From: Candidatus Pelagibacterales bacterium
GTDB taxonomy: Bacteria > Pseudomonadota > Alphaproteobacteria > Pelagibacterales > Pelagibacteraceae
DNA: 64,000 nucleotides
Direction of reading: 5' to 3'
NCBI GenBank assembly: GCA_965235415.1
Contig: CBDDXD010000002.1
Location: 93,596 to 157,595, forward strand
Shown: piece after piece, positions 27,936 through 45,281 of the stretch
How positions within the stretch are numbered: position 1 is the stretch's first letter
How the letters are laid out: every line of letters begins with the position of its first letter
The notes under the pieces: generated by a model
What the model saw: the letters and a program-made list of their open reading frames with translations, nothing else
What the model was told of the DNA's origin: nothing
Databases searched by the model: none
Made by a program: the position numbers and the translations under genes

Positions 27936-28802
27936 ATGATTGGAAATAAATTTAAAGGGCTAGGAAAAGGATTGTCAGCATTAATGGGGGATATTCCTCC
28001 AGAAAATATTCAAACTAAAAGTTCTTCAGAAAAAATTCCTATACATTTTATATATGCCAATCCTTCTCAACCAAGAAAAAATTTTAATCAACAATTACTT
28101 AATGAGCTTTCTGAATCAATTAAAGAGCAAGGAATTATTCAGCCAATATTAGTTAGAAAAAAATCAGAGGATAAATATGAAATTGTTGCTGGAGAAAGAA
28201 GATGGAGAGCAGCTCAACTTGCAAAAATTCATGAAGTACCAGTTATTGTTTTAAATATTGATGATAAAAAATCTTTAGAATTTGCAATATTAGAAAATAT
28301 TCAAAGGTCAGATTTAAACGGAATAGAAGAGGCTTTGGGTTATGATAATTTAGTTAGAAAATTTGCATATTCTCAAGAAACATTATCAAAAATTTTGGGA
28401 AAAAGCAGAAGTCATATTGCTAATACGTTAAGACTTGTTGGTCTGCCTGAAGAGATAAAAAAAATGATATCAGATGGATTATTAACAGCTGGACATGCTA
28501 GATGTTTAGTTAATGTTCCGGATAATATTAGACTTGCTAAAATAATAGTTAATAAAAATCTTTCAGTAAGGCAGGCTGAATTTTTAGTTAAAAAAGAGCA
28601 AGTTTTTTCAAGTTCTAAAAAAAATACAACAAATAATAAAGATACAAATATAAAATCTTTAGAAAGTGATCTTGAACTTTTAATGGGAATAAAAGTAGAT
28701 ATTAAGAATAAAAAAAATAATTCTGGAGAGATTAAATTTTCTTATAAAAATCTTGAACAGTTAAATAAAATTATTAGTGTTCTTAAAGGTTATTTTAGAT
28801 AG
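27936..28802 (+). CDS. parB: Chromosome partitioning protein ParB
   Basis: GLGKGLSAL, NPSQPRK, GIIQPILVR, IVAGERRWRAA, ENIQRSDL, GKSRSHIANTLRL. Confidence 0.98.
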   Translation: MIGNKFKGLGKGLSALMGDIPPENIQTKSSSEKIPIHFIYANPSQPRKNFNQQLLNELSESIKEQGIIQPILVRKKSEDKYEIVAGERRWRAAQLAKIHEVPVIVLNIDDKKSLEFAILENIQRSDLNGIEEALGYDNLVRKFAYSQETLSKILGKSRSHIANTLRLVGLPEEIKKMISDGLLTAGHARCLVNVPDNIRLAKIIVNKNLSVRQAEFLVKKEQVFSSSKKNTTNNKDTNIKSLESDLELLMGIKVDIKNKKNNSGEIKFSYKNLEQLNKIISVLKGYFR

Positions 28803-29786
28803 GTTTTGAGTTAAAAAATAATAAAATTGAGTATCTTGATTTAAATCATTTCTCTTAAACTCAGTCTCAACAATATTCAAATTACTTAAGAAATTTTTCA
28901 AGATTATTAGTGCTCCAAATTTTTAATATATTTTTTATTCTATCTTTATCTTTCCAGAAAATAGGAGGTTTATATCTTTCAATTCTTTCATCGATTGAAA
29001 GATGTTTTATTATTTTTTTGTATATCAAGAATTTTAATTATGAATGATCTTAGAATAATAATTATTTCTATAAAATTTTTTTCATAATTAGACATATTGG
29101 ATATAAATTCATTAATATTTTTTTCATTTTTAGATAGTAAAATATCAATAATTTCATCATTCTTTTTTAGATCTGCATCAGTACAAATTTCTTCAATAAT
29201 TTGATCTGTTATTTTTCCTGAATTTTTATATAGATTTAATTTTTCAATTACTTCTTTAATTTTTGATCTTTTTAAGGAAGAAGAATTAATAATAGTTTCA
29301 CTTTGTGAATCTGATAATTGAATATTATTTATTTAGAGTTGTTGTGTGAAGAAATTTTTTTATATCAAATTTAGTTTCTTGATAGCAGGGGATACAAATA
29401 GCTAATTTATCATATTCTCCAAATTGTCTTAGTTTCGAATTTTTTAGAAGTATTTCAGAGTTTAAAATAATAATATTATCATTAATATTATTTTTTATTT
29501 TATTAATAATTTCTAGTATTTTTTCAGAACAGTTTTTAATGATTGAAATATTTTTATTATCATCAAATAATGATCCATTAAGATAATAATTAATAATATT
29601 TTCTGGATTCTTAATTATATCTTCTTCAAAAAAAGATTTTGAGATTTTATTTTCTTCTATAAATTTAGATACAATTTGTTGATTTAAATCATTAACTAAA
29701 TCTTGATTTTCTCCATATAAAAGAATTATTTTTTCTTTAAAAAAATCTTTTTTTTTAAGACTTATCTCTTGTGATTTTAAGAGCAT
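28761..29786 (-). CDS. holA: DNA polymerase III delta subunit (frameshifted, first break near 29330)
   Basis: MLLKSQE, ILLYGEN, GSLFD, KNSKLR, IPCYQE. Downstream frames give IKEVIEKLNLYK and ...FYYFLTQNLSK. Follows leuS-lptE. Confidence 0.8.
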
Positions 29787-29791
29787 TTAAA

Positions 29792-30256
29792 CTAATTTAA
29801 TGAGACTCTAGATTTAAATAAGATATTTTGAATTATAGAATCTAATAATAATCTTTTTTCATTATTTTTTACTAAAATATTATTTGATAAATTGTCAGTT
29901 ACAGAAACTCTTTTGTCTTTGGTTATAGCATCTTGGTAGATGACAACTCCATTTTTATCTTGAAATTGATAGCTTACTGTTAATTTTATAATTTCTTCTG
30001 TAGAAATTCCTCTTGAATCAACAAGAGAACTTTCTGCTGTGTCATAAATTTGAGCTTTAAATATATAAGCATTTAAATTTTTTTCATCTTTTTTAAAATT
30101 TAATTTTTGTTCTAAATTAAAAGCTAGATCTTTATCACCAATAATTTCTGATTTAGAAATAATTACTTGTTTAGAGTTTCCAGTATAAATAGGTGAAAAA
30201 CCACAATGAGTTAAAGTAATTGATATTATAATAGCTAGAAAAAATTTATTTATCAT
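29792..30256 (-). CDS. lptE: LPS assembly lipoprotein LptE-like
   Basis: Lipobox LTHC followed by GFSPIY; lies between leuS and holA. Likely start is the ATG at 30256. Confidence 0.75.
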   Translation of the reverse strand: MINKFFLAIIISITLTHCGFSPIYTGNSKQVIISKSEIIGDKDLAFNLEQKLNFKKDEKNLNAYIFKAQIYDTAESSLVDSRGISTEEIIKLTVSYQFQDKNGVVIYQDAITKDKRVSVTDNLSNNILVKNNEKRLLLDSIIQNILFKSRVSLN

Positions 30257-32784
30257 TAGTAACAATATTAAGTAGTTTATTTTTTATAAAAATTTTTTTT
30301 ATTATATTTTTTTCTTCTAATATAACTTTAATATTTTTAATTGCTAAGGATTTGCTAAAAATATTTTCCTCACTTTCATTGTTAATAGCGTTGATAATTG
30401 CTCTTTTTTTACCATTTATTTGAATTACAATATCAAAATTATCTTTTTTTATAAGAGTATTTTCAATTTTAGGCCACTCTTGTGAACTTAGATTATTTTC
30501 TTTTGTAATTTTTTCCCAGCATTCGTTTGCGATGTAATGGAATAAAAGCAGATATAATAATTAAATATTTTTTATAAGCATTGATAATATCTTCTTCATT
30601 TAAAGTTTTTTTATCAATTTCTTCATTAAGATTATTTAAAAAAACATAAAGTTTAGCAACAGCTACATTAATATGAAATTTTTCTATACATTCTGTAATT
30701 TCTTTTATTAGAATATTTGTTTTAATTAAAAAACTATTATTATTTTCTTCTTTTTCTTTTTTATAAATTTTAATTTTTTCACAAACACGCCAAATTTTTT
30801 GTATATATTTAAATGCACCTTGGATACCGCTATCACTCCATTGAATATCTCGATCTGGAGGACTATCTGATAAAATAAACCATCTTACAGCATCTGCATC
30901 CATAAATTTTAATAATATCATCAGGATCAACAATATTTTTTTTAGACTTAGACATAGCTTGACTATCTCCTTTTAAAACTTTTTCTTTATTATCTAAAAA
31001 ATAAGATCCATCTTTTTCAATAACTTCTTTTGGAAAAACCCATTTTCCTTTTTCTGTTTTAAAGGTTGGATGACATACCATTCCTTGAGTAAAAAGATTT
31101 TCAAAAGGTTCAGAAACTTTTAATTTAAATTCATCTTGTAAGTGCTAAAGTAAAAAATCTTGAATATAAAAGATGAAGTATGGCATGCTCAACACCGCCA
31201 ATATATTGATCTACTGGCATCCAATAATTAGCTTCATCTATATTAAAAGGTTTTTCATTTTCTTTTGGTGAGCAGAAGCGAAGAAAATACCAAGAAGAAT
31301 CTACAAATGTATCAAGAGTATCAGTTTCACGAATAGCTTTCATTCCAGTTTCTGGACATTTTGTATATTTCCATGTGGGATGATTTTCTAATGGATTTCC
31401 TGGTTTGCTAAAATCTATATCTTTAGGCAGTTCTACAGGTAGATCTTTTTCTGGAACTAAAATAACCTTTCCATCTTCTCTATACATAATTGGAATTGGA
31501 CATCCCCAATATCTTTGTCTTGATATTCCCCAATCTTTAAGACGATAAATTATTTTAGAATTTCCTATTTTTTTTTCTTCTATTTTTTTAATAATATTTT
31601 TTTTTGCATCTTCAATACTTAAATCATTAAGAAAATCTGAATTAATAATATAACCATCCTCTGTATATGCCTGATCATTAATTATAATAGATTTAGACTT
31701 TATCAGGACTTACAACGGGAATTATTTCTAGATTATATTTTTTTGCAAATTCTAAATCTCTTTGATCATGTGCTGGACAACCAAATATAGCTCCAGTTCC
31801 ATAATCCATAAGTATAAAATTAGCTACATAAATTGGTATTTTTTTATTTAAAAAAGGATGTAATGCAAAAAATGGAGTTTTAAAACCTAATTTTTCATTT
31901 TTAGATAAAGATGATTCTGTGCCAATATTTTTTAAAGCAAGTTTTTTAAAATTTTGAAAATTTTTTTCATTTTTAAAATATTCAGTAAAAGGATGATCTG
32001 GAGCAATAGCAATAAATGAAGCTCCAAATATTGTATCTGGTCGTGTTGTAAAAATTTTAATTTTAGTATTTTTAAAATCTGAAATAAAATCAATTTCGCA
32101 ACCTATCAGATTTTCCAATCCAGTTTTTTTGCATTAACCTTACTTTTTCTGGCCAACCTTTTAAATTATCAAGAGATTTTAATAATTGATCTGAATATTT
32201 TGTAATATTTAAGAACCATTGATTTAATTCTTTTTTTTCAACAACTGCTCCAGATCTCCAACCTTTGCCATCAATCACTTGTTCATTTGCAAGAACTGTA
32301 TTGTCGATAGGATCCCAATTTACATAACTTTTTTTTTTATAAGCAATTCCTTTTTTAAAAAGAAAAGAAAATAAAATTTGTTGATGTTTATAATATGTAG
32401 CATCGCAAGTAGAAATTTCTTTATCCCAATCAATAGATAAGACCTAAGTCGTTTTAATTGCGATTTCATTGTTGAAATATTTTTTAATGTCCAATCTTTA
32501 GGATGTAGATTATTTTGTATAGCAGCATTTTCTGCAGGCAAACCAAAAGCATCCCAACCCATAGGATGCAAAACATTATAACCATTTAATCTTTTAAAAT
32601 TAGCTATAACATCACCAAGAGTATAATTTCTAACATGACCCATATGAATATTTCCTGATGGATAAGGAAACATTTCTAAACAATAAAATTTTTTATTTTT
32701 ATTTTTTTTAGTTTTAAAAATTTTATTTTTTTCAAAAAAATATTGCCATTTTTCTTCAATTGGAAGAGGATTGTAATTTTCCAT
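30246..32784 (-). CDS. leuS: Leucine--tRNA ligase (split by at least 6 frameshifts)
   Basis: Fragments in order: [101 protein letters not shown]. Confidence 0.97.
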
Positions 32785-32791
32785 TTTAAAA

Positions 32792-33365
32792 TTAAGTGCT
32801 ATTTTTGTTATCTTTTTTTGATTCTTCTATTTTTATTAGTCTTGCAGTTGAGATAATATGATTCTTTTATTTCATTAGTAAAATTATTATCTAATTTTTC
32901 AATTATAACATTTATCTAGATTATCACAAATTTTTTTATGAGCTAATAACTTTAATAGAATCTGATCTTAATTCATTACTTAAAAATCTTACTGAAATTT
33001 TTATTTGTTCATTTGATTTTCACCTTTGTCTGAATACCAATCATAAATTATTATCCCACCAGAATAATCAGCATTAACAAGAGGTAAAAAATCTAAACTT
33101 TTTAAGAGTTGCTCTCCATAAAACATTTGAAGTTGAAAATTCAAAAGTTTGTTCCGAGTATTTTTTTTACTAATATCTCCAAAAATACCACCACCTTTAT
33201 CTGCAAATTCTCTTGCTTTTTTTATCAGGATCAGGTTCTATAAGTAACTTTTTCACCAGTTATAGGGTCTGTTTTTGCAGCAATGATTTAATAGAATCAA
33301 TAAAATCAAATAAAAATAAAGAACATAAATTTATTAAAATGATTATATTTGAAAAATATTATATA
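32792..33365 (-). CDS. DUF3576-like protein (heavily frameshifted; start approximate)
   Basis: Manual translation across frames: [70 protein letters not shown]. Confidence 0.75.
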
Positions 33366-33542
33366 AAATATAGATATATTTAACTAAATATACTGTTGTA
33401 AAAATACAACACATATATTAATTAATTATTGCAATAATTCGATATTTATAAACAATAAATATAGTTAAATAATATAATTATCAAGTGTTAATTAAATAAT
33501 TATATTAATTAACTAAATTAATAACTAACAAAAAGGTAAAAA

Positions 33543-34663
33543 ATGAAAAAACTACTGTTAACAACTGCTCTTGCAGGTGCTTTAGTTAGCGTACATGCTG
33601 CATTTGCTCAAACAACAATAACTGGTGAGTCTAAGCTTGAACTTATCAAAGCTTAGCAAATTCTGCTACAGCTGGACACTAATGAACAGCTTACAAGGTT
33701 TTGGTAGCAGAACAGCAAATCAACGTTCAAACTAAAGGTAAATTAAATATTGGTGGCTTAGATTATGCTGCTGGATTTCGCTATAGAGAATGATGGTGAA
33801 TCAAACTGCTACTCTATTCAATGAAAACACTTACATGGACTTCACAAATGCAAGTTCAGGTACTACAATTTACTATTGGTAGAGACCACATTCAGAGATC
33901 AGACTCAGATAGATCAGCTACAGTACTTAGTTGGATTTGCTACCAAACGAGTTACTCTAGCTGATAGACGCTACAACAGCGTAACTACGTTTCAGCCAAA
34001 ACATTGGACCTGCAGTTGACAAGCTTATGGTAGTAGCATTATTACAAAAAACTCCAATTGGAACATTCTCATATAGTTCATATGCTCCAACAGCGGTGTT
34101 GACTGCAGCTGCTGTATGCATCTGGAGTTAACTGCAGCAAACACAAGGTTCAGAATCTAACAGCTGAATCGTGATGAACGAATCTGCTTATGAATATGGT
34201 TTCGCAGGTGATTTAGGTGTTAAAGGTTTGAATGCTTATTACTTCAAATCAGCAAATAAAAATCTTCAGGACGTGGTTAACAGACTAGTAGATGCAGAAG
34301 CTAATCAACTATGGTGTTAGCTACAACTTTGGTGCAATTCACAGTTGGTTAGCTGACAAGAAGATAACTATACAAACTCGCTGGAACAGCTTAACTGTTG
34401 AACTAATGACATACAGAAACAGCATATGGTGTTGCTTATGCAGTAAATAAAGAATCTATCTATTGGTGCTATTTATGCAAAAGCTGAATTAGCTACAGGA
34501 ACTATCAACAGCTGACTCAAAAAATTAAAGCAATTCAACGTTGGTTATAACTTAGGACCAGTATGCTTTAACAGTTGGTTATGCATAAAACTGAAGATGT
34601 CAGGTGGCACAGCTGGTGCTGATAAGAGTCATAGTTATGGTCAGATTACTTGGAGCGTTTTAA
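33543..34663 (+). CDS. Major outer-membrane porin (many indels; not in ORF track)
   Basis: Signal peptide MKKLLLTTALAGALVSVHAAFAQTTITG; fragments EQQINVQTKGKLN, ESAYEYGFAGDLGVKGLNAYYFK, YGVAYAVNK; ends VMVRLLGAF* with C-terminal Phe. Visibly higher GC than the flanks; followed by a strong terminator. Confidence 0.85.
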
Positions 34664-34693
34664 TTTAATTAATTATATAATTATTAATTAAAT

Positions 34694-34729
34694 AAGCCCG
34701 CTTACTAGAAATAGTAAGCGGGCTTTTTT
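34694..34729 (+). terminator. Intrinsic terminator after porin
   Basis: 14-bp perfect stem AAGCCCGCTTACTA-GAAA-TAGTAAGCGGGCTT followed by a T run. Confidence 0.92.
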
Positions 34730-34746
34730 ATTTGTAATTTATCTAT

Positions 34747-35293
34747 TTATATCCAAGATTTAACACCTACAGACATTGCTTTTGTTAAATTTATTTTTTT
34801 AATATTTGTTTAATTAATACCTCCTAAAGCACAAATGTTAGTTTTCCAATTTATAGAAATTAAATTAAATTTAATAGGATTTAATATTTTATTTTGTGAA
34901 TATTTATTGTTATAAAAAATCGGTGATAACATAATTGTTTTGCAGTTTTGTTTATTTTTTGATAAAGTATTCAAATTGATTATGAGCAGATCCTATTAAT
35001 ATTAAATTTTATTTTTTAAATAAATATTAATTAATTTTTTATTATTTACTAGATAAAAATATACCATGAGCTTTATAATTTATTGCAATTTATAATTATC
35101 GTTAAAATATAAAAAGGAATTCTGATTTTTTTTGCAAAATTTATTAATATATTATGCAAGTTTTAAGTATTTGTTTATTAATTGTAATATTTAAATATTA
35201 GATAAGTTCTTATATATTTTAAGTATATTTTTTATTATTATTTCATTTAAATTCATCAATAAAGATATAATATTTATAATTTAATGTATTCAT
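34747..35293 (-). CDS. Thiamine phosphate synthase (TMP-TENI)-like protein, frameshifted
   Basis: C-terminal fragment ...ICALGGIN..IKKINLTKAMSVGVKSWI* and MLSPIF motif; ends approximate. Confidence 0.55.
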
Positions 35294-35937
35294 GTAATAT
35301 ATCTATATAATTATAAAAATAATTAAAGAAAGAAATCAAATATTACTAAATAAATACAAATTTAATTAGTTGTAACTAAAAATCAAACTTTTGATAAAAT
35401 TAAATCTATTAATTAAATATGGTCATTATGATTTTGGAGAAAATAAAGTGCAAGAAGCTAAAGAAAAATGGTCAGATATTTATAAATAGTAATAAAAATA
35501 TAAAACTTCATTTAATTGGTAAACTTACAATCTAATAAAGCTAAAGATGCTTTTGCATTATTTAATTTTATTCACTCCTTAGATAATGAAAAATTAGCTA
35601 ATAAATTTTCTGAATTTGAAAAAAATTTCTAAAAAAAGTTAAATATTTTATTCAAGTTAATATTGGTAATGAAGATCAAAAAAATGGAATTAATGATGTC
35701 ATCTATTAGATGATTTTGTTAATTTTTGTAAAAATGATTTAAATTTAAATATTATAGGATTAATGTGCATTCCTCCAATTAATTTAGATCCTGAGATCAT
35801 TTTTTAAAAAAATGAAATATCTTAATGTTGAAAATAATCTTAACAGAACTTAGTATGGGAATGTCATCATGATTATAAAGATAGCAATAAATTGTGGATC
35901 TACTTTTGTAAGAATTGGTTCTGCTATATTTAAATAG
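35292..35937 (+). CDS. yggS: PLP homeostasis protein YggS/PLPBP (frameshifted)
   Basis: Fragments VVTKNQ, DFGENKVQEAKEKW, LHLIGKLQSNK, FIHSLD, QVNIGNEDQK.GI, GLMCIPP, LSMGMS, GSTFVRIGSAIF. Confidence 0.9.
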
Positions 35938-35944
35938 ATATTAA

Positions 35945-36442
35945 TTAGCCAATTTTGATTTTAGTATTTTTTTTAATTATTAGATAATAATTTTAATAAA
36001 TCATTTTTTTTTAAAGCAATACATCCTTTAGTTTTTTTATAATTTTTTTTTGCTATATGTAATAAATATAGCGCTACCTTTATTTTTTATATGTGGGATT
36101 TATATTATAATTTAATAACTACATATTATATCGTAAATATTGTCTTTTCGATATAATTTTTCATGACTAAATTTATTAGGTAATTTTATTTGTTTATTAT
36201 AATAATCACTTTTAGGATCATCACACCATCCCATATTTTTTTTAATTTTAATTTTTTTTAATTTGAGTTTTAATTTTTTTAATTCTATCTGTTCTGTAGT
36301 AAATTTTTATTATTTTAAATGTTCCTTTAGGAGTTATATTGTCACCTTCTTTTATTTTTTTTTTAATACCAGCTTTTCCTAAAGCACAACGAAATTTAAA
36401 ATTTTTATATTTTAAATATCCAGATTTTTTTACAATAATCAT
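35945..36442 (-). CDS. L,D-transpeptidase (YkuD-like) family protein, frameshifted
   Basis: FRCALGKAGI..KEGDNITPKGTF, GWCDDP, LYRKDNIYD, KGSAIFIHIA..YKKTKGCIAL (H...C catalytic motif). Confidence 0.82.
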
Positions 36443-36466
36443 ATTAAATGTATTATATATTTATTT

Positions 36467-37103
36467 ATGAATAATATTCATCTTCATATTATTGGATCAA
36501 AATCTTTTTATTAATTTATTAAATGAATTAGATCTTAATTATAATATTAGTTCTGATAATAAATCTAAAATATAATAATAAAGATTTATTAGTTAGAATT
36601 ATTTTTGCTGAAAAATTACAATTAATTGAAATTAAAAAATATTTTATTAGAAAATATTCCAACTATTTTTTTATTAAATAATAAAGATTTTTTAATAAAA
36701 AATAAATTAAATTTATTAGAATTTCATGTATCTTTATTTATTCCTATTGAAATTTTATCTTTTAAAGAAATATTAAATATTTTAATTACAAAATATAATT
36801 TTTTTAAAAAATCTAAAATTATTATTAATGATTATGAAATAGATTCTAATCAAAGAGTTATTATGAAAAATAGTATTAAAGTTAAACTTACAGAAAAAGA
36901 ATTAGAATTAATTTTAATCTTAAATAAAAATAATGGCTTAAATAAATCTTTTTTATTAAAAAATATATGGAATCATAGTTCAGATTTAGAAAGCACATGC
37001 TTTTGAAACTCATTTACATAGATTAAGAAAAAAAATAAATAAATTTTTTAAAGATAAAAAATTTATTATAGAAAAAAATTCTTTATATTATTTATCTAAA
37101 TAA
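36467..37103 (+). CDS. OmpR/PhoB-type winged-helix transcription regulator (frameshifted)
   Basis: KLTEKELELI, LLKNIWNH, then shifted ETHLHRLRKKI. The N-terminal region lacks recognisable receiver motifs. Confidence 0.78.
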
Positions 37104-37111
37104 TTATTAAT

Positions 37112-38064
37112 TTATTCTAATCTTGCTCCAATTTTTTGAATTATTTTTGAAGCAAGTATTGATCCAGTTATTAGACATTTTTTAATATCAGATTTTTCTA
37201 AATATTCTTTTAAAAATCCTGCAGCAAATAAATCTCCAGCACCAGTTAAATCTAATATTTTATCAACTTTTATACTTTCACAATTTATAATTTCATTATT
37301 TTTAATAGCTACACTTCCATTTTCACTTCTTGTTATAACTATTAATTTATTAAATTTTTTTAATTGATTTATAGAATCTAATAAATTTTTTTTATTTGTT
37401 AATTCATTTATTTCATTTTCATTTCCTATTAATATATCTAAATCATTTTTAAGTAAGTTTATAAAAATCTTCTTTATGTCTAGTTACACAAAAAATATCA
37501 GACAAACTCATTGCAATTTTTATTTTATTTTTTTTTGCTATATTTATTACATGTTTAAACATTTTTTCACTTATTCCTTTATCCCAAAGATATCCTTCTA
37601 AAAAAATTAATTCATGATTCTATAATATTATTTTCATTTATATCGTTATCTGAAAGATGTGATGATATTCCAAGATAAGTACACATAGTTCTTTCTGAGT
37701 CAGGAGTAATTAAAATGATAGATGCGCCTGTAGATAAATTTTCATTTTTTTCAATGTAAGAAAAATTTACATTTATATCTTCTAAGACTTTTTTTATATA
37801 ATTTCTCCAAAATTATCAGAATTAATTTTTCCAATAAAAGATGGATTTCCTTTAAGATAAGCAATTCCAGCCATAGTATTTGCAACAGAACCTCCTGCTA
37901 CAATTTTTTCAATTTTAATATTTTTTTTAAGATCTTCAAATTCAGATTTATTAATCAGTTTCATAGAGCCTTTAATAAGATTATTTTTTTATTAAAAATT
38001 CATCATCTACTTTTGCAAGTACATCAACAATTGCATTTCCTATTCCTAATATTTTTTTATTCAT
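37112..38064 (-). CDS. PfkB family carbohydrate/adenosine kinase (frameshifted)
   Basis: MNKKILGIGNAIVD, VAGGSVANTMAGIA, TPDSERTMCTYLG, DLTGAGDLFAAGF, GARLE*. Confidence 0.88.
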
Positions 38065-38695
38065 TTTTTTCTTTGTATAGACAAATTTTATTAATTACAC
38101 ATTTTTTACATAATGGATTTCTAGATTTACAGGTATATCTTCCATGCAAAAGTATTAAATGATGAGCTTTTTTTATATGTTTTTTAGGTAATATTTTTAA
38201 AAGTTGATTTTCAACTTGTTCAGGATTTTTACCATTAGAAAGACCAGTTCTATTACTAACTCTAAAAACATGAGTATCTACAGCAATAGTTGGTTTATTA
38301 AATGCAGCATTTAAAACTACATTAGCTGTTTTTCTACCAACTCCAGGAAGAAGTATTAATTCTTCAAATTTATTTGGAACTTTACTTTGATATTTTTCTA
38401 ATAAAATTTTAGATAAATAATATAAATTTTTAGCTTTATTATTAAATAGTCCTATACTTTTAATAAGATTTCTTATTTTATTTATTCCAAGATCTACAAA
38501 ATGTTTAGGAGTATAATATTTTTTATATATATTTTTAGTAACATTATTTACATTAACATCAGTGCATTGCGCTGAAAGAACAACAGAAGTTAATAGAGTA
38601 AATTTATTTCTATATTTTAAAGATGTTTTTGGATTTTTTATTGATTTATTTAATAATTTAATAAGTTCTAAAGCTTTATTTTTATTTAAAAGCAT
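38057..38695 (-). CDS. nth: Endonuclease III
   Basis: VVLSAQCTD, HhH LPGVGRKTANVVL, VDTHVFRV, C-x6-C-x2-C-x5-C cluster motif. Confidence 0.98.
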   Translation of the reverse strand: MLLNKNKALELIKLLNKSIKNPKTSLKYRNKFTLLTSVVLSAQCTDVNVNNVTKNIYKKYYTPKHFVDLGINKIRNLIKSIGLFNNKAKNLYYLSKILLEKYQSKVPNKFEELILLPGVGRKTANVVLNAAFNKPTIAVDTHVFRVSNRTGLSNGKNPEQVENQLLKILPKKHIKKAHHLILLHGRYTCKSRNPLCKKCVINKICLYKEKNE

Positions 38696-38721
38696 TAAAA
38701 TAATTTAAAAAATTTAATAAT

Positions 38722-39496
38722 TTATTTTAGACTAAACATATCTTGCATATTAAATAAGCCTTTATTTTTTTTACTTATCCATATAGCAGCATTTAATGCT
38801 CCATCAGCAAAAAGTTCTCTTGAAAAAGCAGTATGTTTTAATTCTATATTTTCTATTTTATTATTAAAAAGTACTGAATGTTTGCCAATAGTATTTCCTT
38901 TTCTTGTAATAAAAAAATTAATTTTATTTTTTTGCAAATTACCTTTTTTATTTAAAAACATTTTTCCTTTTATTGATTCTAAGTTTTTATTTTTACCTTT
39001 AGATACTGCATTTGCTAACATTAATGCTGTTCCTGATGGATAATCAATTTTTTTTTTGTGATGATTATCATTAATTCCAATATGATAATCATTAGGAATT
39101 TTTTTTGATAGAATATTAACAATATATTCTAAGAAGATTAATACCTAAACTCATATTACCTGATTTAAATATAGCAATTTTTTTTGAGTAATTTTTAATT
39201 AAATTATTTTGTTTTTTAGTAAAACCTGTTGTTCCAATTACAATTTTTTTTTTTAATTTTTTTGCATAATTTAAAATTTCAAGGGAAGCTTTGGGTCTTG
39301 AAAAATCAATAATAACATCAGTTTTTTTAAAAGCTTCTAAGTTATTTTTTTGTATCTTAATTCCACTTATAGTTTTTCCAGATTTTAAATCTGTTAAGCT
39401 AAATAATTTTAGATTTTTATTTTTTGATATTCTTTTAATTAGAATTTTTCCCATTCTTCCAAGAGCACCAGAGATTGTAATATTAATTTTTTTCAT
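38722..39496 (-). CDS. dapB: 4-hydroxy-tetrahydrodipicolinate reductase, copy 1 (full length; frameshift near 39130)
   Basis: ISGALGRMG, VIIDFS, VIGTTG, SGNMSLGINLL, HHKKKIDYPSGTA, HTAFSRELFADGA...MQDMFSLK*. Confidence 0.93.
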
Positions 39497-39586
39497 TAAT
39501 TACCACTCCAAAACTTTTTAGCTTTATTTATAAAATTTTTTATTTCTGAATTGTTATTTAAATCTTCTAAAGATTTAAATTTTTCG
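38746..39586 (+). repeat. 841-bp direct repeat, copy A (dnaJ last about 30 codons + dapB)
   Basis: Aligns by eye to 41443-42283 with 12 substitutions and 2 single-base indels. Confidence 0.97.
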
Positions 39587-41360
39587 TATAAAGTTGAGAA
39601 TTAAATAATGTTGAATTGCCTTTCTCTATTGAAAGCCTTTGTTTGATTTCTAATATTTTTCTATTATCATTTGAAAGTTTGACAGCTAAATCTTCATATT
39701 CTTTTTCTGAATAAGTTATTAATTCCCTCATGTTCATGGAGCTTAATAAACTTGCCGAAACTCTAGAAGCAAAGCTTTCTCCGGCAAGAGTTAATAAAGG
39801 AGTTCCAGCCCACAAAACATCGTTCGCAGTAGTATGTGCACTACATGGAAATGTATCTAGAAATAAGTCAGCAAGTTTATATCTATTTAAATTTTCTCCA
39901 ATATTAACCCTTTTAGTAAAAATTATTCTTTTGGGATTTATGTTTTTATTTGTGGCTTCAGATTTTAGATTATTTAATGGCTTGAGTATTGTCTGATAGT
40001 AACCATAAGACACTATTAGTGTTTCTTTTTTAAAATATTCATCCATGTATTAAAAATATATGGATTGATTTTTATTATATTATTAAAGCAACAAAAAATA
40101 AATTTGTTCTCTGGTAAATTGTAATCTTTTTTAAATAAATTATTTACAATACTTTCTCGCTTTTGGTCACTTACTTGATAGCTATTAGGTAAATAAATTA
40201 TTTTTTCCGAATAAAATTTTATGACTCTGATTAGGTATTAAAATCTTATCAGCTATTATATAATTTACGTAGTTAGTCCCCATAGTATTAGGAAAAGCTA
40301 AATAATTAATTTGTATTGGTGCTGCGTTTAATGCAAAAATGTTAGGCCTGCAATTTTTTATAAAACCATTTACATCGATAGCTATATCAAGATTTATTTT
40401 GTTACAAAACCTAGCTACCTTGTGATCGGAAATTGAAGAAATGTTATAGAATTTTGTTGCAGCATTTTTTATTCTATTTAACTTACCGTCAATTTTATTA
40501 CCAAAATAGAATATAAATAAATCAAATTTAGTTTTGTCGTGATATTCAAATAACTCAGGTATTAAATATCCAGTAGGATGAGAGTTGTTAAAATCACTTG
40601 AAAAGTACCCAATCTTAATTTTATTATTAGTGTGAGTACTTTTTGTTGGAGCATTAATCTTTGGAAAATTTTTAGTTGAGTAATCTTTAATGACTGTGCT
40701 TTGTATTTCTAAAGAATCAAATAAAAATACAATATCTAGCGGTTTAGAAACTTGTTTTTTTTTTATATTATTTCTAATAAATGTTGAATGTGGAAAATTA
40801 TTTTCATTTACAGCTAGACTTGTAAAAATTAATTTATTCTCATAATAGGTAGGGATAGTCAGGTTTTAATTTTAAAAGCTGATTATAGAATATAACGCAT
40901 CATCGTATTTTTTTGAAATTTCAAGTAATTCAGCCAGATTATAATAGGCATCATAAAAATTCTTATCAAATAATATTGCTTTATTATAACAATCTAAAGC
41001 TAAGTTAAAATTAGATGTAATTTTATATATTTGAGCTAAATTAAAAAATCCAATAGCATAATTTTCTTTTAATTCAATTGCATTTTTATAAAACTTAATT
41101 GCTTGATCGTACTTTTTTAATTCTTTAAATATAAATCCGAGGTTGTTGTAAGCAGAAAAATTTTTCGGATTAATTGAGATTGAATCTTTTATTAATTTAA
41201 TTGATTCAAAATATTTTTTTTTTGAGAAAAAAATAATTCCTAAAAGATTTTTCGCCTGAAAATTTTTTGGTTCATTTTTAATAATTTTTTGATAAATATT
41301 CTCTGCTTTTTCTAAAAAACCATCTTTATGAAATTTAATAGCCTCCTCTAACAAATCCAT
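39567..41360 (-). CDS. TPR-repeat + SPINDLY/O-GlcNAc transferase-like glycosyltransferase (GT41), frameshifted
   Basis: About 4-5 N-terminal TPRs (AYNNLG, AYYNLA). Manual translation gives KIGYFSSDFNNSHPTG, DIAIDVNG, APIQINYLAFPNTMG, FCCFNNIIKINP, DLFLDTFPCSAHTTANDVLWAGTP, GESFASRVSASLL. Confidence 0.88.
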
Positions 41361-41387
41361 TTTAAAAGTTCATAAAATTTTAAATTT

Positions 41388-41442
41388 TTATCCGCTCCAA
41401 AATTTTTTAGCTTTATTAATAAAATTTTTAATTTCTGAATTA
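41388..41442 (-). pseudogene. Orphan diverged dnaJ 3' tail (17 codons + stop)
   Basis: AAT TCA GAA ATT AAA AAT TTT ATT AAT AAA GCT AAA AAA TTT TGG AGC GGA TAA = [17 protein letters not shown], matching the DnaJ C-terminus with 5 synonymous differences. Confidence 0.9.
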
Positions 41443-42193
41443 CATATTAAATAAGCCTTTATTTTTTTTACTTATCCATATAGCAGCATTTAATGCTCCA
41501 TCAGCAAAGAGTTCTCTTGAAAAAGCAGTATGTTTTAATTCTATATTTTCTATTTTATTATTAAAAAGTACTGAATGTTTGCCAATAGTATTTCCTTTTC
41601 TTGTAATAAAAAAATTAATTTTATTTTTTTGCAAATTACCTTTTTTATTTAAAAACATTTTTCCTTTTATTGATTCTAAGTTTTTATTTTTACCTTTAGA
41701 TACTGCATTTGCTAACATTAATGCTGTTCCTGATGGGTAATCAATTTTTTTTTTATGATGATTATCATTAATTCCAATATGATAATCATTAGGAATTTTT
41801 TTTGATAGAATATTAACAATATATTCAAGAAGATTAATACCTAGACTCATATTGCCTGATTTAAATATAGCAATTTTTTTTGAGTAATTTTTAATTAAAT
41901 TATTTTGTTTTTTAGTAAAACCTGTTGTTCCGATTACAACTTTTTTTTTTAATTTTTTTGCGTAATTTAAAATTTCAAGGGAAGCCTTTAGGTCTTGAAA
42001 AATCAATAATAACATCAGTTTTTTTAAAAGCTTCTAAGTTATTTTTTTGTGTCTTAATTCCATTTATAGTTTTTCCAGATTTTAGATCTGTTAAGCTAAA
42101 TAATTTTAGATTTTTATTTTTTGATATTCTTTTAATTAGAATTTTTCCCATTCTTCCAAGAGCACCAGAGATTGTAATATTAATTTTTTTCAT
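41440..42193 (-). CDS. dapB: 4-hydroxy-tetrahydrodipicolinate reductase, copy 2 (lacks last 7 aa; frameshift near 41985)
   Basis: Same motifs as copy 1; ends GLFNM* where it is joined to the orphan dnaJ tail. Confidence 0.9.
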
Positions 42194-42283
42194 TAATTAC
42201 CACTCCAAAACTTTTTAGCTTTATTTATAAAATTTTTTATTTCTGAATTGTTATTTAAATCTTCTAAAGATTTAAATTTTTCG
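41443..42283 (+). repeat. 841-bp direct repeat, copy B
   Basis: Partner of 38746-39586; offset 2697 bp. Confidence 0.97.
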
Positions 42284-43335
42284 AGCAAGTCCTTTTGTTC
42301 TTTTGACAAGGATTCAGGAATTATTACATTTGTTTCTAGATATAAATCTCCATAATCATCACTTCTTATAATAGGCATGCCTTTGCCTTTTAGCCTAAAT
42401 TGTTTACCAGATTGTGTTCCAGCTGGAATTTTAATCTTTGATTTTCCACCATCAATTGTTGGAACCTCTATTTCGGCACCAAGCGCTGCATCAGTCATTG
42501 ATATTGGTAATTTATAATATAAATTTTCTTCAGATCTTTGAAAAATTTTATGTTTTTCAAGGGTTATAAATACATAAAGATCTCCATTAGATCCTCCTCT
42601 ATAACCAGCATCTCCTTTTCCAGATAATCTTATTTGTGTTCCATCATCAACTCCTTTTGGAATTTGAATGGATAGATTTTTTTTTGTCTTAATAGCCCCA
42701 GATCCTCTACAATCTTTGCAAGGGTTAGAAAGCACTTCACCTTCTCCCCCGCAATCAGGACAAGTTTGTTGTAGAGTAAAAAAACCTTGCTGTGTTCTTA
42801 CTTTTCCATGACCATTACAAGTAGAACATTTCTTTGGTTTTGAACCAGGTTCTGCACCATCACCAGAACATTTTTGACACTTTTCGTTTGAAGATAAATT
42901 GATAGTTTGTTTTTTTCCAAAGTAAGCTTCTTCTAAAGTTACTTCTAAATTAATTTTTAAATCAGATCCTCGATTAGATCTTGATTTTTTAGAACCTCTG
43001 CCACTTCTTCCCGATCCCATAAAGTCGCCAAAAAAATCATCAAAGATGTCAGAGAATGCGCCAGACTCAAAACCACCAAAATCAAAACCTCCAGCCCCAC
43101 CAGCCCCACCTTCAAATGCAGAATGTCCAAATTGATCATAGGAAGATTTTTTCTTTGGGTCAGATAAGACTTGATAAGCCTCAGATGCTTCTTTAAATTT
43201 AGCTTCAGCAGTTTTATCTCCCTGATTTCTGTCAGGGTGGTATTTCATTGCAAGGGATCGATAAGCTTTTTTTATTTCCTCAGGAGTTGCTTTTTTGGTT
43301 ACACCAAGAATATCATAATAGTCTTTTTTGGACAT
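42193..43335 (-). CDS. dnaJ: Chaperone DnaJ
   Basis: J-domain HPD, G/F region, four CxxCxGxG repeats, GDLYV. Confidence 0.99.
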
Positions 43336-43367: not shown

Positions 43368-45281
43368 TTAGCCGTTCTTTTTGTTATCGTCTTTTACTTC
43401 TTCAAACTCGGCATCAACTACATCTTTTTTATCATCAGGCTTAGCATCTGTTTTTGAAGTAGCAGCAGTATCTTGTTGAGCTTTATATATAGCCTCACCT
43501 AATTTCATAGAAGAAGTCATTAATTGCTGAGTTTTATTTTTGATGTCTTCAGTTTTGTCAGATTTAATAGCTTCTTTTAAATCTTCCATATCTTTTTCAA
43601 TTGCTTTTTTATCAGCTTCTGAAATTTTACTTCCATGTTCTTTTAAGCTTTGTTCTGTTGAAGCTATCAAAGAGTCAGCATGATTTTTTGCATCAACTTC
43701 TTCTCTTTTCTTTTTATCAGCTTCCTTATTAGCTTCAGCTTCTTTAACCATTTTTTGAATTTCTTCATCAGTTAAACCACCCGAAGCTTGAATTTGAATT
43801 TTTTGTTCTTTTCCAGTTCCTTTATCTTTTGCAGAAACGTTTACAATACCATTTGCATCAATATCAAAAGTTACTTCAATTTGAGGAACACCCCTTGGAG
43901 CTGGCGCAATTCCAGTTAATTCAAAATTGCCAAGTAATTTATTATCATTTGCCATTTCTCTTTCGCCTTGGAAAACTCTAATTGTTACAGCTGGCTGATT
44001 GTTTTCAGCTGTTGAGAATATTTGACTTTTTTTAGTTGGAATTGTTGTATTTTTTTCAATTAATCTTGTGAACACTCCGCCTAAAGTTTCAATACCAAGT
44101 GACAATGGAGTAACGTCAAGAAGAAGAACATCTTTAACATCACCTTGTAATACACCAGCCTGAACCGCAGCGCCTAAAGCAACTACTTCATCAGGGTTAA
44201 CACTTTGATTTGGTTCTTTACCAAAGAAATTTTTAACTGTTTCAACAACTTTTGGCATTCTTGTCATTCCACCTACAAGAATAACTTCATTAATTTCAGA
44301 TGCTGTGTAACCAGAATCTTTTAATGCAATTTTGCAAGGCTCTATAGTTTTTTCAATGAGTGCTGCAGTAAGAGCTTCAAGTTTTGCTCTTGTGATCTTC
44401 ATATTAACGTGTTTTGGACCAGTCTTATCCGCCGTAATAAATGGTAAATTAACTTCAGTTTGAGCTGATGAGGATAATTCTATTTTTGCTTTTTCAGCAG
44501 CTTCTCTTATTCTTTGTAATGCTAATTTATCAGTTTTTAAATTGATTCCGCTTTCTTTTTTAAATTCCTCAATAATATAATCTGTTACTACAGCATCAAA
44601 ATCATCACCACCTAAAGAAGTATTTCCGTTTGTAGACTTAACTTCAAATACTCCATCGCCCAATTCAAGAACTGAAATATCAAAAGTACCACCTCCTAAA
44701 TCGTATACAGCAATGGTTTTTGCTTTTTTCTTATCAAGACCATAAGCAAGAGCTGCAGCTGTTGGTTCGTTTATAATTCTTAAAACTTCAAGACCTGCAA
44801 TTTTTCCAGCATCTTTCGTAGCTTGTCTTTGTGCATCATTAAAATAAGCAGGAACAGTTATAACTGCTTGTTTTACTTCGCTACCAAGATATTTTTCTGC
44901 AGACTCTTTCATCTTCATTAAAACAAAAGCAGAAATTTGACTTGGGGAATATTTTTTATCACGAGACTGAACCCATGCATCAGTACCGTTATCAGATTTA
45001 ATTACTTTATAAGGAAGTCCTTGTATGTCTTTTTTTAAATTTGAGTCATCAAAACTTTTTCCAATTAATCTTTTAACTGAGAAGAAAGTATTTTCAGGAT
45101 TTGTTACCGCCTGTCTTTTTGCAGGAAGACCAACTAATTTTTCACCGGATTCTGTAAAGGCTACTATAGAAGGGGTTGTTCGAACACCTTCTGCATTCTC
45201 TAATACTTTTGGCTGCGCGCCATCCATAATAGCAACGCATGAGTTTGTGGTTCCTAAATCTATTCCAATTATTTTTGACAT
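43368..45281 (-). CDS. dnaK: Chaperone DnaK
   Basis: [51 protein letters not shown]. Confidence 0.99.

Follow-up and report, generated by a model that had tools for sequence, protein, structure and literature searches.

Integrative islands and prophages may bring along a duplicate of the terminal part of the gene into which they insert, as is the case for the 3' ends of tRNA and tmRNA genes and for the 5' end of dusA. False duplications, either haplotypic or strain-derived, arise in assemblies of mixed genotypes, the usual breaks being located within shared sequence or at gaps. Homology-facilitated illegitimate recombination was reportedly described in naturally transformable bacteria by de Vries and Wackernagel (2002) and by Prudhomme et al. 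(2002). The same term is used in PMC6382021. In SAR11 (Pelagibacterales), small flexible genomic islands occupy fixed core-gene hotspots and are devoid of mobile-element genes (PMC11796062), and single-cell genomes of the LD12 clade display hypervariable regions, with very low recombination being reported (PMC4053759). A hotspot between dnaJ and dapB is not mentioned in this literature on variable regions of SAR11 and LD12 (PMC11796062, PMC4053759).

In this study, we analysed a 55-nt copy of a dnaJ 3' end which lies upstream of a glycosyltransferase gene, separated from the intact resident dnaJ by a copy of dapB. We assign a probability of roughly 0.8 to the reading that this tail is the authentic dnaJ 3' end of another Candidatus Fonsibacter lineage, in which a gene of the GT41 family is located between dnaJ and dapB, and that it was carried along as a passenger. 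The tail has no function of its own. It is a scar left by a passively carried piece of DNA, or else strains were mixed up during assembly. All explanations considered below are known kinds of feature, and the tail itself is an ordinary one.

Results and discussion

Organisation of the locus

In the window, by which we refer to the whole analysed stretch of 64,000 nt, all genes of the locus reside on the minus strand in the order dnaK, dnaJ, dapB copy 2, tail, 27-nt spacer, TPR-GT41, second dnaJ tail, dapB copy 1 and nth. Besides GT41, the ORFs flanking the locus are housekeeping genes (dnaK, dnaJ, dapB, nth). The features are as follows:

43368-45281, minus strand: dnaK
42193..43335, minus strand: resident dnaJ, encoding 380 aa in an intact frame, with a stop codon that overlaps the dapB start (TAATG)
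41440..42193, minus strand: dapB copy 2, without its last 7 codons, with a blunt left joint between 41442 and 41443 and a private 1-nt insertion (G near 41985)
41388..41442, minus strand: third dnaJ tail, corresponding to the terminal 55 nt of a B-type dnaJ (17 codons and stop) and forming the left end of the foreign block
41361..41387, minus strand: intergenic spacer between dnaJ and GT41, B-type, 27 nt, with homologous spacers of 26-27 nt in contigs L055-L057 and L138-L144
39587..41360, minus strand: TPR-GT41 (SPINDLY/OGT-like), without its last ~21 codons, with 5 frameshifting indels and 2 garbled patches
39576..39586, minus strand: right joint, an 11-nt stretch CGAAAAATTTA, corresponding to TATACAAAAAATTTAGAA in the GT41 3' region of L138
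39496..39586, minus strand: second dnaJ tail, matching the terminal 91 nt of the resident dnaJ with 100% identity
38722..39496, minus strand: dapB copy 1, present over its full length, with one extra base (A near 39130) that is private to it
38057-38695, minus strand: nth
38746..39586, minus strand: direct repeat unit copy 1 (dnaJ tail and dapB), with its partner at 41443-42283, the copies being 98.3% identical
28800..42190, no strand assigned: poor-consensus stretch with leuS, holA, pfkB, yggS, a porin gene, both dapB copies and GT41 frameshifted and with clean flanks

The repeat unit of 841 nt is composed of the last 91 nt of dnaJ and of dapB, the latter breaking off 7 codons before its stop. 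Between its two copies lies a block of 1.86 kb, running from 41442 to 39587 and comprising the tail, the spacer and GT41, which is collinear with the B-type allele of related genomes introduced below.

The tail is a diverged dnaJ end

The tail reads, from 41441 to 41388 on the minus strand,

AAT TCA GAA ATT AAA AAT TTT ATT AAT AAA GCT AAA AAA TTT TGG AGC GGA TAA

and the 3' end of the resident dnaJ reads

AAT TCA GAA ATA AAA AAT TTT ATA AAT AAA GCT AAA AAG TTT TGG AGT GGT AAT TAA

with base 41442 (T) also being part of the foreign block. A preliminary description of this DNA had noted 17 codons with five synonymous third-position changes (ATA>ATT twice, AAG>AAA, AGT>AGC, GGT>GGA) and a stop one codon early, all of which we find to be exact to the base. 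Its counting of the tail as a third one was likewise correct, with the second dnaJ tail at 39496-39586 and the resident dnaJ end being present besides 41388-41442, and the distance of 27 nt that it gave to the TPR-GT41 start agrees with a spacer at 41361-41387 and an ATG at 41360.

In BLASTN, the tail matches the resident dnaJ end with 92% identity over 50 nt (90% elsewhere in our analysis) and E = 1e-14 in the genome of 1.16 Mb, a match far above chance level. Considering this similarity, the resident dnaJ tail could have been duplicated locally, with the copy diverging in place, or the resemblance could be accidental, and both options carry a practically negligible probability. The E value speaks against chance, and five changes that are exclusively synonymous would be unexpected for a relic evolving without selection. 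Further, the first 39 nt of the tail, the spacer and the next 1.8 kb match foreign B-type contigs and not the resident sequence.

These first 39 nt, including both ATT codons, are identical to the dnaJ end of the independent contigs L138-L144. The last 15 nt differ, with AAA TTT TGG AGC GGA TAA in the window tail compared to AAG TTC TGG AAA GAA TAA in L138, and in total ~8 positions differ from L138 over the last 15 nt and the spacer. This terminal part resembles both the A-type genome G009 (AAA TTT TGG AGC GGT) and the B-type genome G003 (TGG AGT GGA GAT TAA), and the donor allele may be a mosaic of A-type and B-type, as judged from this pattern. The ending AGC GGA TAA was absent from all B-type contigs found, the nearest alleles of which end with AAA GAA TAA. 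Since the last 15 nt are unlike L138, the exact donor allele is so far unseen. The expectation of the preliminary description, a full dnaJ ending with AGC GGA TAA and followed by TPR-GT41, was therefore borne out with respect to the adjacency of dnaJ and GT41 and failed with respect to the exact ending.

Two natural arrangements behind dnaJ

The relatives of the DnaJ protein are named Candidatus Fonsibacter, SCGC AAA027-L15 and AAA028-C07, from which we assign the genus Fonsibacter, the LD12 freshwater clade of SAR11; many of them are MAGs from one long-read lake project. Throughout the order, dapB directly follows dnaJ, and in the clade of the window stop and start codon overlap in TAATG ("A-type"). 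The arrangement dnaJ, TPR-GT41, dapB, nth ("B-type") is found in 6 of 21 Fonsibacter species (G003, G005, G013, G016, G018, G020), with dnaJ overlapping or abutting dapB in the remaining ones. It additionally occurs in at least 10 independent metagenome contigs (JGI L055-L057; ENA/Logan L138-L144) with a spacer of 26-27 nt. Relatives carrying TPR-GT41 directly behind dnaJ, as anticipated from the window alone in the preliminary description, hence do exist in both sets. L055-L057 share the layout dnaJ, 27 nt, GT41 (619 aa), 27 nt, dapB, nth, and their GT41 displays 78-91% protein identity to the window in the segment queried in the metagenome scan, the nucleotide identity to the window GT41 amounting to 90% for L055 and 87% for L056. 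In L055 (2737-3511), dapB is split into two ORFs of 134 and 99 aa near an A run, for which an error in the homopolymer or a genuine slip may be responsible. In none of the natural B-type alleles was a dnaJ-tail remnant found between GT41 and dapB, where the spacer measures only 8-35 nt (27 nt in the metagenome contigs).

In close relatives, the GT41 cassette is polymorphic, being present in some and absent from others at one position between the two core genes. Mapped onto the DnaJ tree, which is a single-gene tree, its presence and absence require at least 3 changes forced by well-supported branches and 5 by parsimony. A and B labels do not cluster on this single-gene tree, and the distribution does not follow host phylogeny. 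From these repeated flips, we conclude that genes are gained and lost in the interval between dnaJ and dapB, which constitutes a small hotspot. This resembles the flexible islands of SAR11, in that a gene of surface or glycosylation type is variably present between two core genes, in that integrase and transposase are missing and in that the distribution on the DnaJ tree is patchy. In contrast to those islands, the island consists of a single gene here, and the cassette of the window is not cleanly swapped, lying between duplicated flanks with out-of-register joints.

Among the 137 related loci, only the genome of the window contains more than one dnaJ tail, and no relic tails were found in the others. 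Assemblies with identical DnaJ (L043, L045) show the plain order dnaJ-dapB-nth. The locus of the sister MAG L043 is broken downstream of dnaJ, as is the poor-consensus stretch of the window. Furthermore, 4 of 5 short-read contigs with identical DnaJ (L044, L046, L047, L048) end 64-190 nt past the dnaJ stop. Between strains, identity amounts to 96-98% in dnaK-dnaJ compared to 89-93% from dapB onward. In the sequences of natural populations, the dnaJ end constitutes a sharp boundary between conserved and variable DNA.

GT41 open frames of the six B-type species encode 659-694 aa and are 30-50% identical to the window copy. The same range of 30-50% is found between the GT41 genes at this position (window 39567-41360, L049-L054, L138) of Fonsibacter species with ~90% identical DnaJ, which points either to very rapid evolution of the cassette or to its replacement by distantly related variants.

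Origin of the 1.86-kb block

From 41442 to 39643, the block is 98-100% identical to L138 in 300-nt bins, two garbled patches aside. From the right joint onward, in dapB, nth and beyond, identity to L138 drops to about 75-92%. Since the block is this close to L138 and the core flanks are this distant, the tail represents the native dnaJ end of another lineage and is a passenger. The claim of the preliminary description that GT41 was transferred together with the dnaJ end of a relative is in line with this result, the tail, spacer and GT41 forming one B-type block between diverged flanks. The tail would be present because the left breakpoint of the B-type block fell 55 nt inside dnaJ, and its differences would be synonymous only because they accumulated under purifying selection in the working dnaJ of the other lineage. 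Identity and origin of the block can be read directly from these alignments. Its apparent recency is unsafe, since polishing with cross-mapping B-type reads could inflate the identity to L138.

The broken frames of the window GT41 were traced by mapping against relatives. The window gene matches TPR_1/2/17 and PF13844 (Glyco_transf_41), the latter reaching the profile end, and accordingly displays the TPR and Glyco_transf_41 architecture of the GT41 family, though truncated and frameshifted as written. L138 encodes an intact orthologue of 618 aa (P0003), which was found on 8 contigs, originating from an ENA assembly made with MEGAHIT and from the Logan assemblies of six runs, in the constant order dnaJ end, 26 nt, GT41, 27 nt, dapB. 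Compared to L138, the window GT41 contains five frameshifting indels, two garbled patches and only ~4 other substitutions, and this dominance of indels suggests consensus error. The two patches (40779-40842 and 40148-40152) differ by ~50% from L138 between identical flanks, and the first one wipes out the conserved protein segment LGxIxNLKLQICDWxNF. A small inversion as the origin of patch 40779-40842 was rejected, the reverse-complement alignment scoring 34 compared to 131 in forward direction.

The right joint costs GT41 ~21 final codons, and the gene now ends with ...YTKNLNL*, running into the dnaJ tail in another frame. In a search with the 159-aa ORF crossing this joint, a second YTKNLNL C-terminus was not found among ~15 billion proteins, the matches and the members of their cluster having only native C-termini (YTKNIELAY...), and the cluster of P0003 contains no truncated variant. 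The exact products of the three ORFs crossing or bordering the joints were not found outside this record.

Nature of the joints and the att-site reading

Both joints can be inspected at nucleotide level. At the left border, dapB lacking 7 codons (-24 nt) meets position -55 of the B-type dnaJ, and the sequence runs from dapB ...AATATG directly into TAATTCAG... of dnaJ, constituting a blunt joint with 0-1 nt in common. At the right border, GT41 lacking ~21 codons (about -63 nt) meets position -91 of the A-type dnaJ. Here, the donor-type GT41 reads TATAC-A-AAAAATTTA-GAA and the resident-type dnaJ GCTC-G-AAAAATTTA-AATC, while the window reads TATAC-G-AAAAATTTA-AATC, with 10 of 11 nt in common and 9 of them uninterrupted. 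The chance of a microhomology of at least 9 nt at random joints between these sequences is 4.4e-4. Relative to dnaJ, the joints are mutually out of register (-55, -91). It is because of these two non-homologous, out-of-register joints that the block is flanked by two 841-bp copies of dnaJ tail and dapB.

The preliminary description had compared the dnaJ 3' end, as an anchor of exchange, to an att site. In such a scheme, a mobile cassette bearing its own copy of the gene end would integrate by means of a recombinase. Like an integrative island, the window contains a diverged gene-end copy bordering variably present DNA, with direct repeats of the dnaJ tail on both sides of GT41 and with a cassette that relatives have or lack. 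The further properties of such elements are missing. Tyrosine recombinases (PF00589) were searched for near the insert and yielded no match on contig C2, the only matches in the genome being located on C1 and C3, and an integrase or any other mobile-element gene was found in none of the B-type loci. The two borders lie at different positions and do not share a common core. A gene-end replacement did not take place either, since the resident dnaJ still ends in its original tail; dapB copy 2 comes next, and the foreign tail is located behind it. Finally, the arrangement does not recur, with natural B-type alleles having no second tail between GT41 and dapB and stacked tails being seen nowhere else in the 137 loci. 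This reading is consequently very improbable, the proposed att-like anchor has to be abandoned, and we conclude that a site-specific mechanism (att/integrase) is not involved.

Strain mixture and assembly

The poor-consensus stretch (28800-42190) includes leuS in at least 5 pieces, and holA, the porin gene, yggS, a YkuD-type gene, pfkB and both dapB copies are frameshifted as well. A second leuS copy was not found in the genome; leuS being single-copy, the frameshifts of the stretch most probably reflect errors in the consensus. The region of 10-50 kb of contig C5 is matched by contig C6 (39 kb) with 85-87% identity over 39 kb, from which it follows that two lineages of Fonsibacter are present in the bin. 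At its start, contig C1 contains 5.3 kb which are the reverse complement of the end of contig C3 (99.1%). Outside the window, a 4.1-kb tandem duplication (99.9%) is located at G000:C2:253320-261591, including aquaporin-like, ArsC-like and neighbouring genes, one gene being truncated at the joint, and may be a genuine amplification or may have been created in assembly.

The two dapB copies differ by 12 substitutions, all transitions, with 9 of them synonymous and 3 non-synonymous. Due to this synonymous excess over random error (P = 0.01), we consider the copies to be distinct natural alleles. The locus contains three alleles in tandem (A2, B, A1). The private frame-breaking insertions of both dapB copies are missing from the related contigs L043 and L045.

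The composite could on these grounds have arisen in assembly, with co-occurring lake strains of A-type (two alleles) and B-type being strung together by chimeric or mis-chained long reads. The tail would then be the end of an intact dnaJ from a B-type strain, without a link to dapB copy 2. We regard this as a serious possibility, though the odds are against it. It would agree with the position of the locus inside a 13-kb stretch in which even single-copy leuS is frameshifted, with differences between GT41 and L138 of a kind typical of consensus error, with a bin of two lineages having redundant contig ends and a second tandem duplication, and with related MAGs of the same project which are frameshifted, too. 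Distinct dapB alleles and three alleles in a row would likewise be expected from mixed strains; moreover, the sister assemblies do not have the structure and the joint is found in no independent record. As in false duplications, alleles stand in tandem within a low-quality stretch of a multi-lineage bin. However, assemblers join reads within shared sequence, and neither joint is in homologous register. Neither Ns nor adapter remnants are present at the joints, and the microhomology of 9-11 nt at the right joint (P about 4e-4), which sets the locus apart from false duplications, fits annealing of DNA ends and not ligation or scaffolding, and in this respect speaks for a real event on the DNA. 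The whole 3.5 kb would also normally be contained within one long read, and dapB copy 2, the block and dapB copy 1 belong to the same class of sequence quality.

How the joints arose, we can only infer from their sequence, and three outcomes share the field. Both joints might be products of real illegitimate recombination in the cell, by two one-sided events or one template switch, which we hold as a tentative option. It appears somewhat unlikely that only the microhomology joint would be real, with two strains having been chimerically fused at the blunt joint. An origin of the entire composite in the long-read assembly of mixed strains is, again, conceivable at less than even odds.

A possible route in the cell

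If the composite is real, two one-sided events would be the simplest in-cell route. Incoming DNA would pair via the highly conserved dnaK-dnaJ, and its far end would be sealed illegitimately a few dozen bases inside the dnaJ tail of the recipient, as in homology-facilitated illegitimate recombination. A first event would have brought in the B-type GT41 and made the right joint, and a second event would have brought in an A-type dnaJ-dapB and made the left joint. Alternatively, a single replicative template switch might have doubled the 841-nt unit and, at the joint, copied in B-type DNA of 1.86 kb.

In such a real structure, the stacked tails would be scars of successive one-sided recombination and dnaJ would be an anchor of exchange in a weaker sense, which we consider unlikely but not to be dismissed. 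Both joints fall within a dnaJ tail (-55, -91), just where homology between the alleles stops, and the right one contains microhomology. The contrast in conservation between dnaK-dnaJ and the region from dapB onward points in the same direction, as does the fact that 4 of 5 short-read contigs with this DnaJ stop <200 nt after dnaJ. The cassette has been repeatedly gained or lost, and the differing dapB alleles would fit a second donor. With homology-facilitated illegitimate recombination, the locus shares foreign DNA beside a strongly conserved stretch and a microhomology of 9-11 nt at the far end; it deviates in that the anchor is only deduced, in that two events or a duplication are needed and in that microhomology is missing from the left joint. 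One locus would have to have undergone two rare events, in a clade reported to be low-recombining, and the relic tail is found in no other genome of the 137 loci. Since LD12 is reported to recombine rarely (PMC4053759), the prior for either in-cell route is lowered. It is more doubtful still that the three tails record a series of such one-sided entries of foreign or sister-strain DNA, each displacing earlier contents downstream. If so, Fonsibacter would repeatedly gain genes at the 3' end of dnaJ.

Conclusions

In either case, the tail itself is explained, namely as the dnaJ end of a GT41-bearing Fonsibacter lineage. If the composite is an artefact, it serves as a warning that relic gene ends and duplicated flanks in strain-rich long-read MAGs can mimic integration scars. 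If it is real, it would represent a gain of GT41 caught in the act, by illegitimate joining beside a chaperone operon in a mobile-element-free, streamlined freshwater SAR11, and would mark the interval between dnaJ and dapB as a small hotspot of gain and loss in Fonsibacter. Should the reading of the tails as one-sided scars be true, it would show how genes enter a streamlined genome in a clade thought to recombine little.
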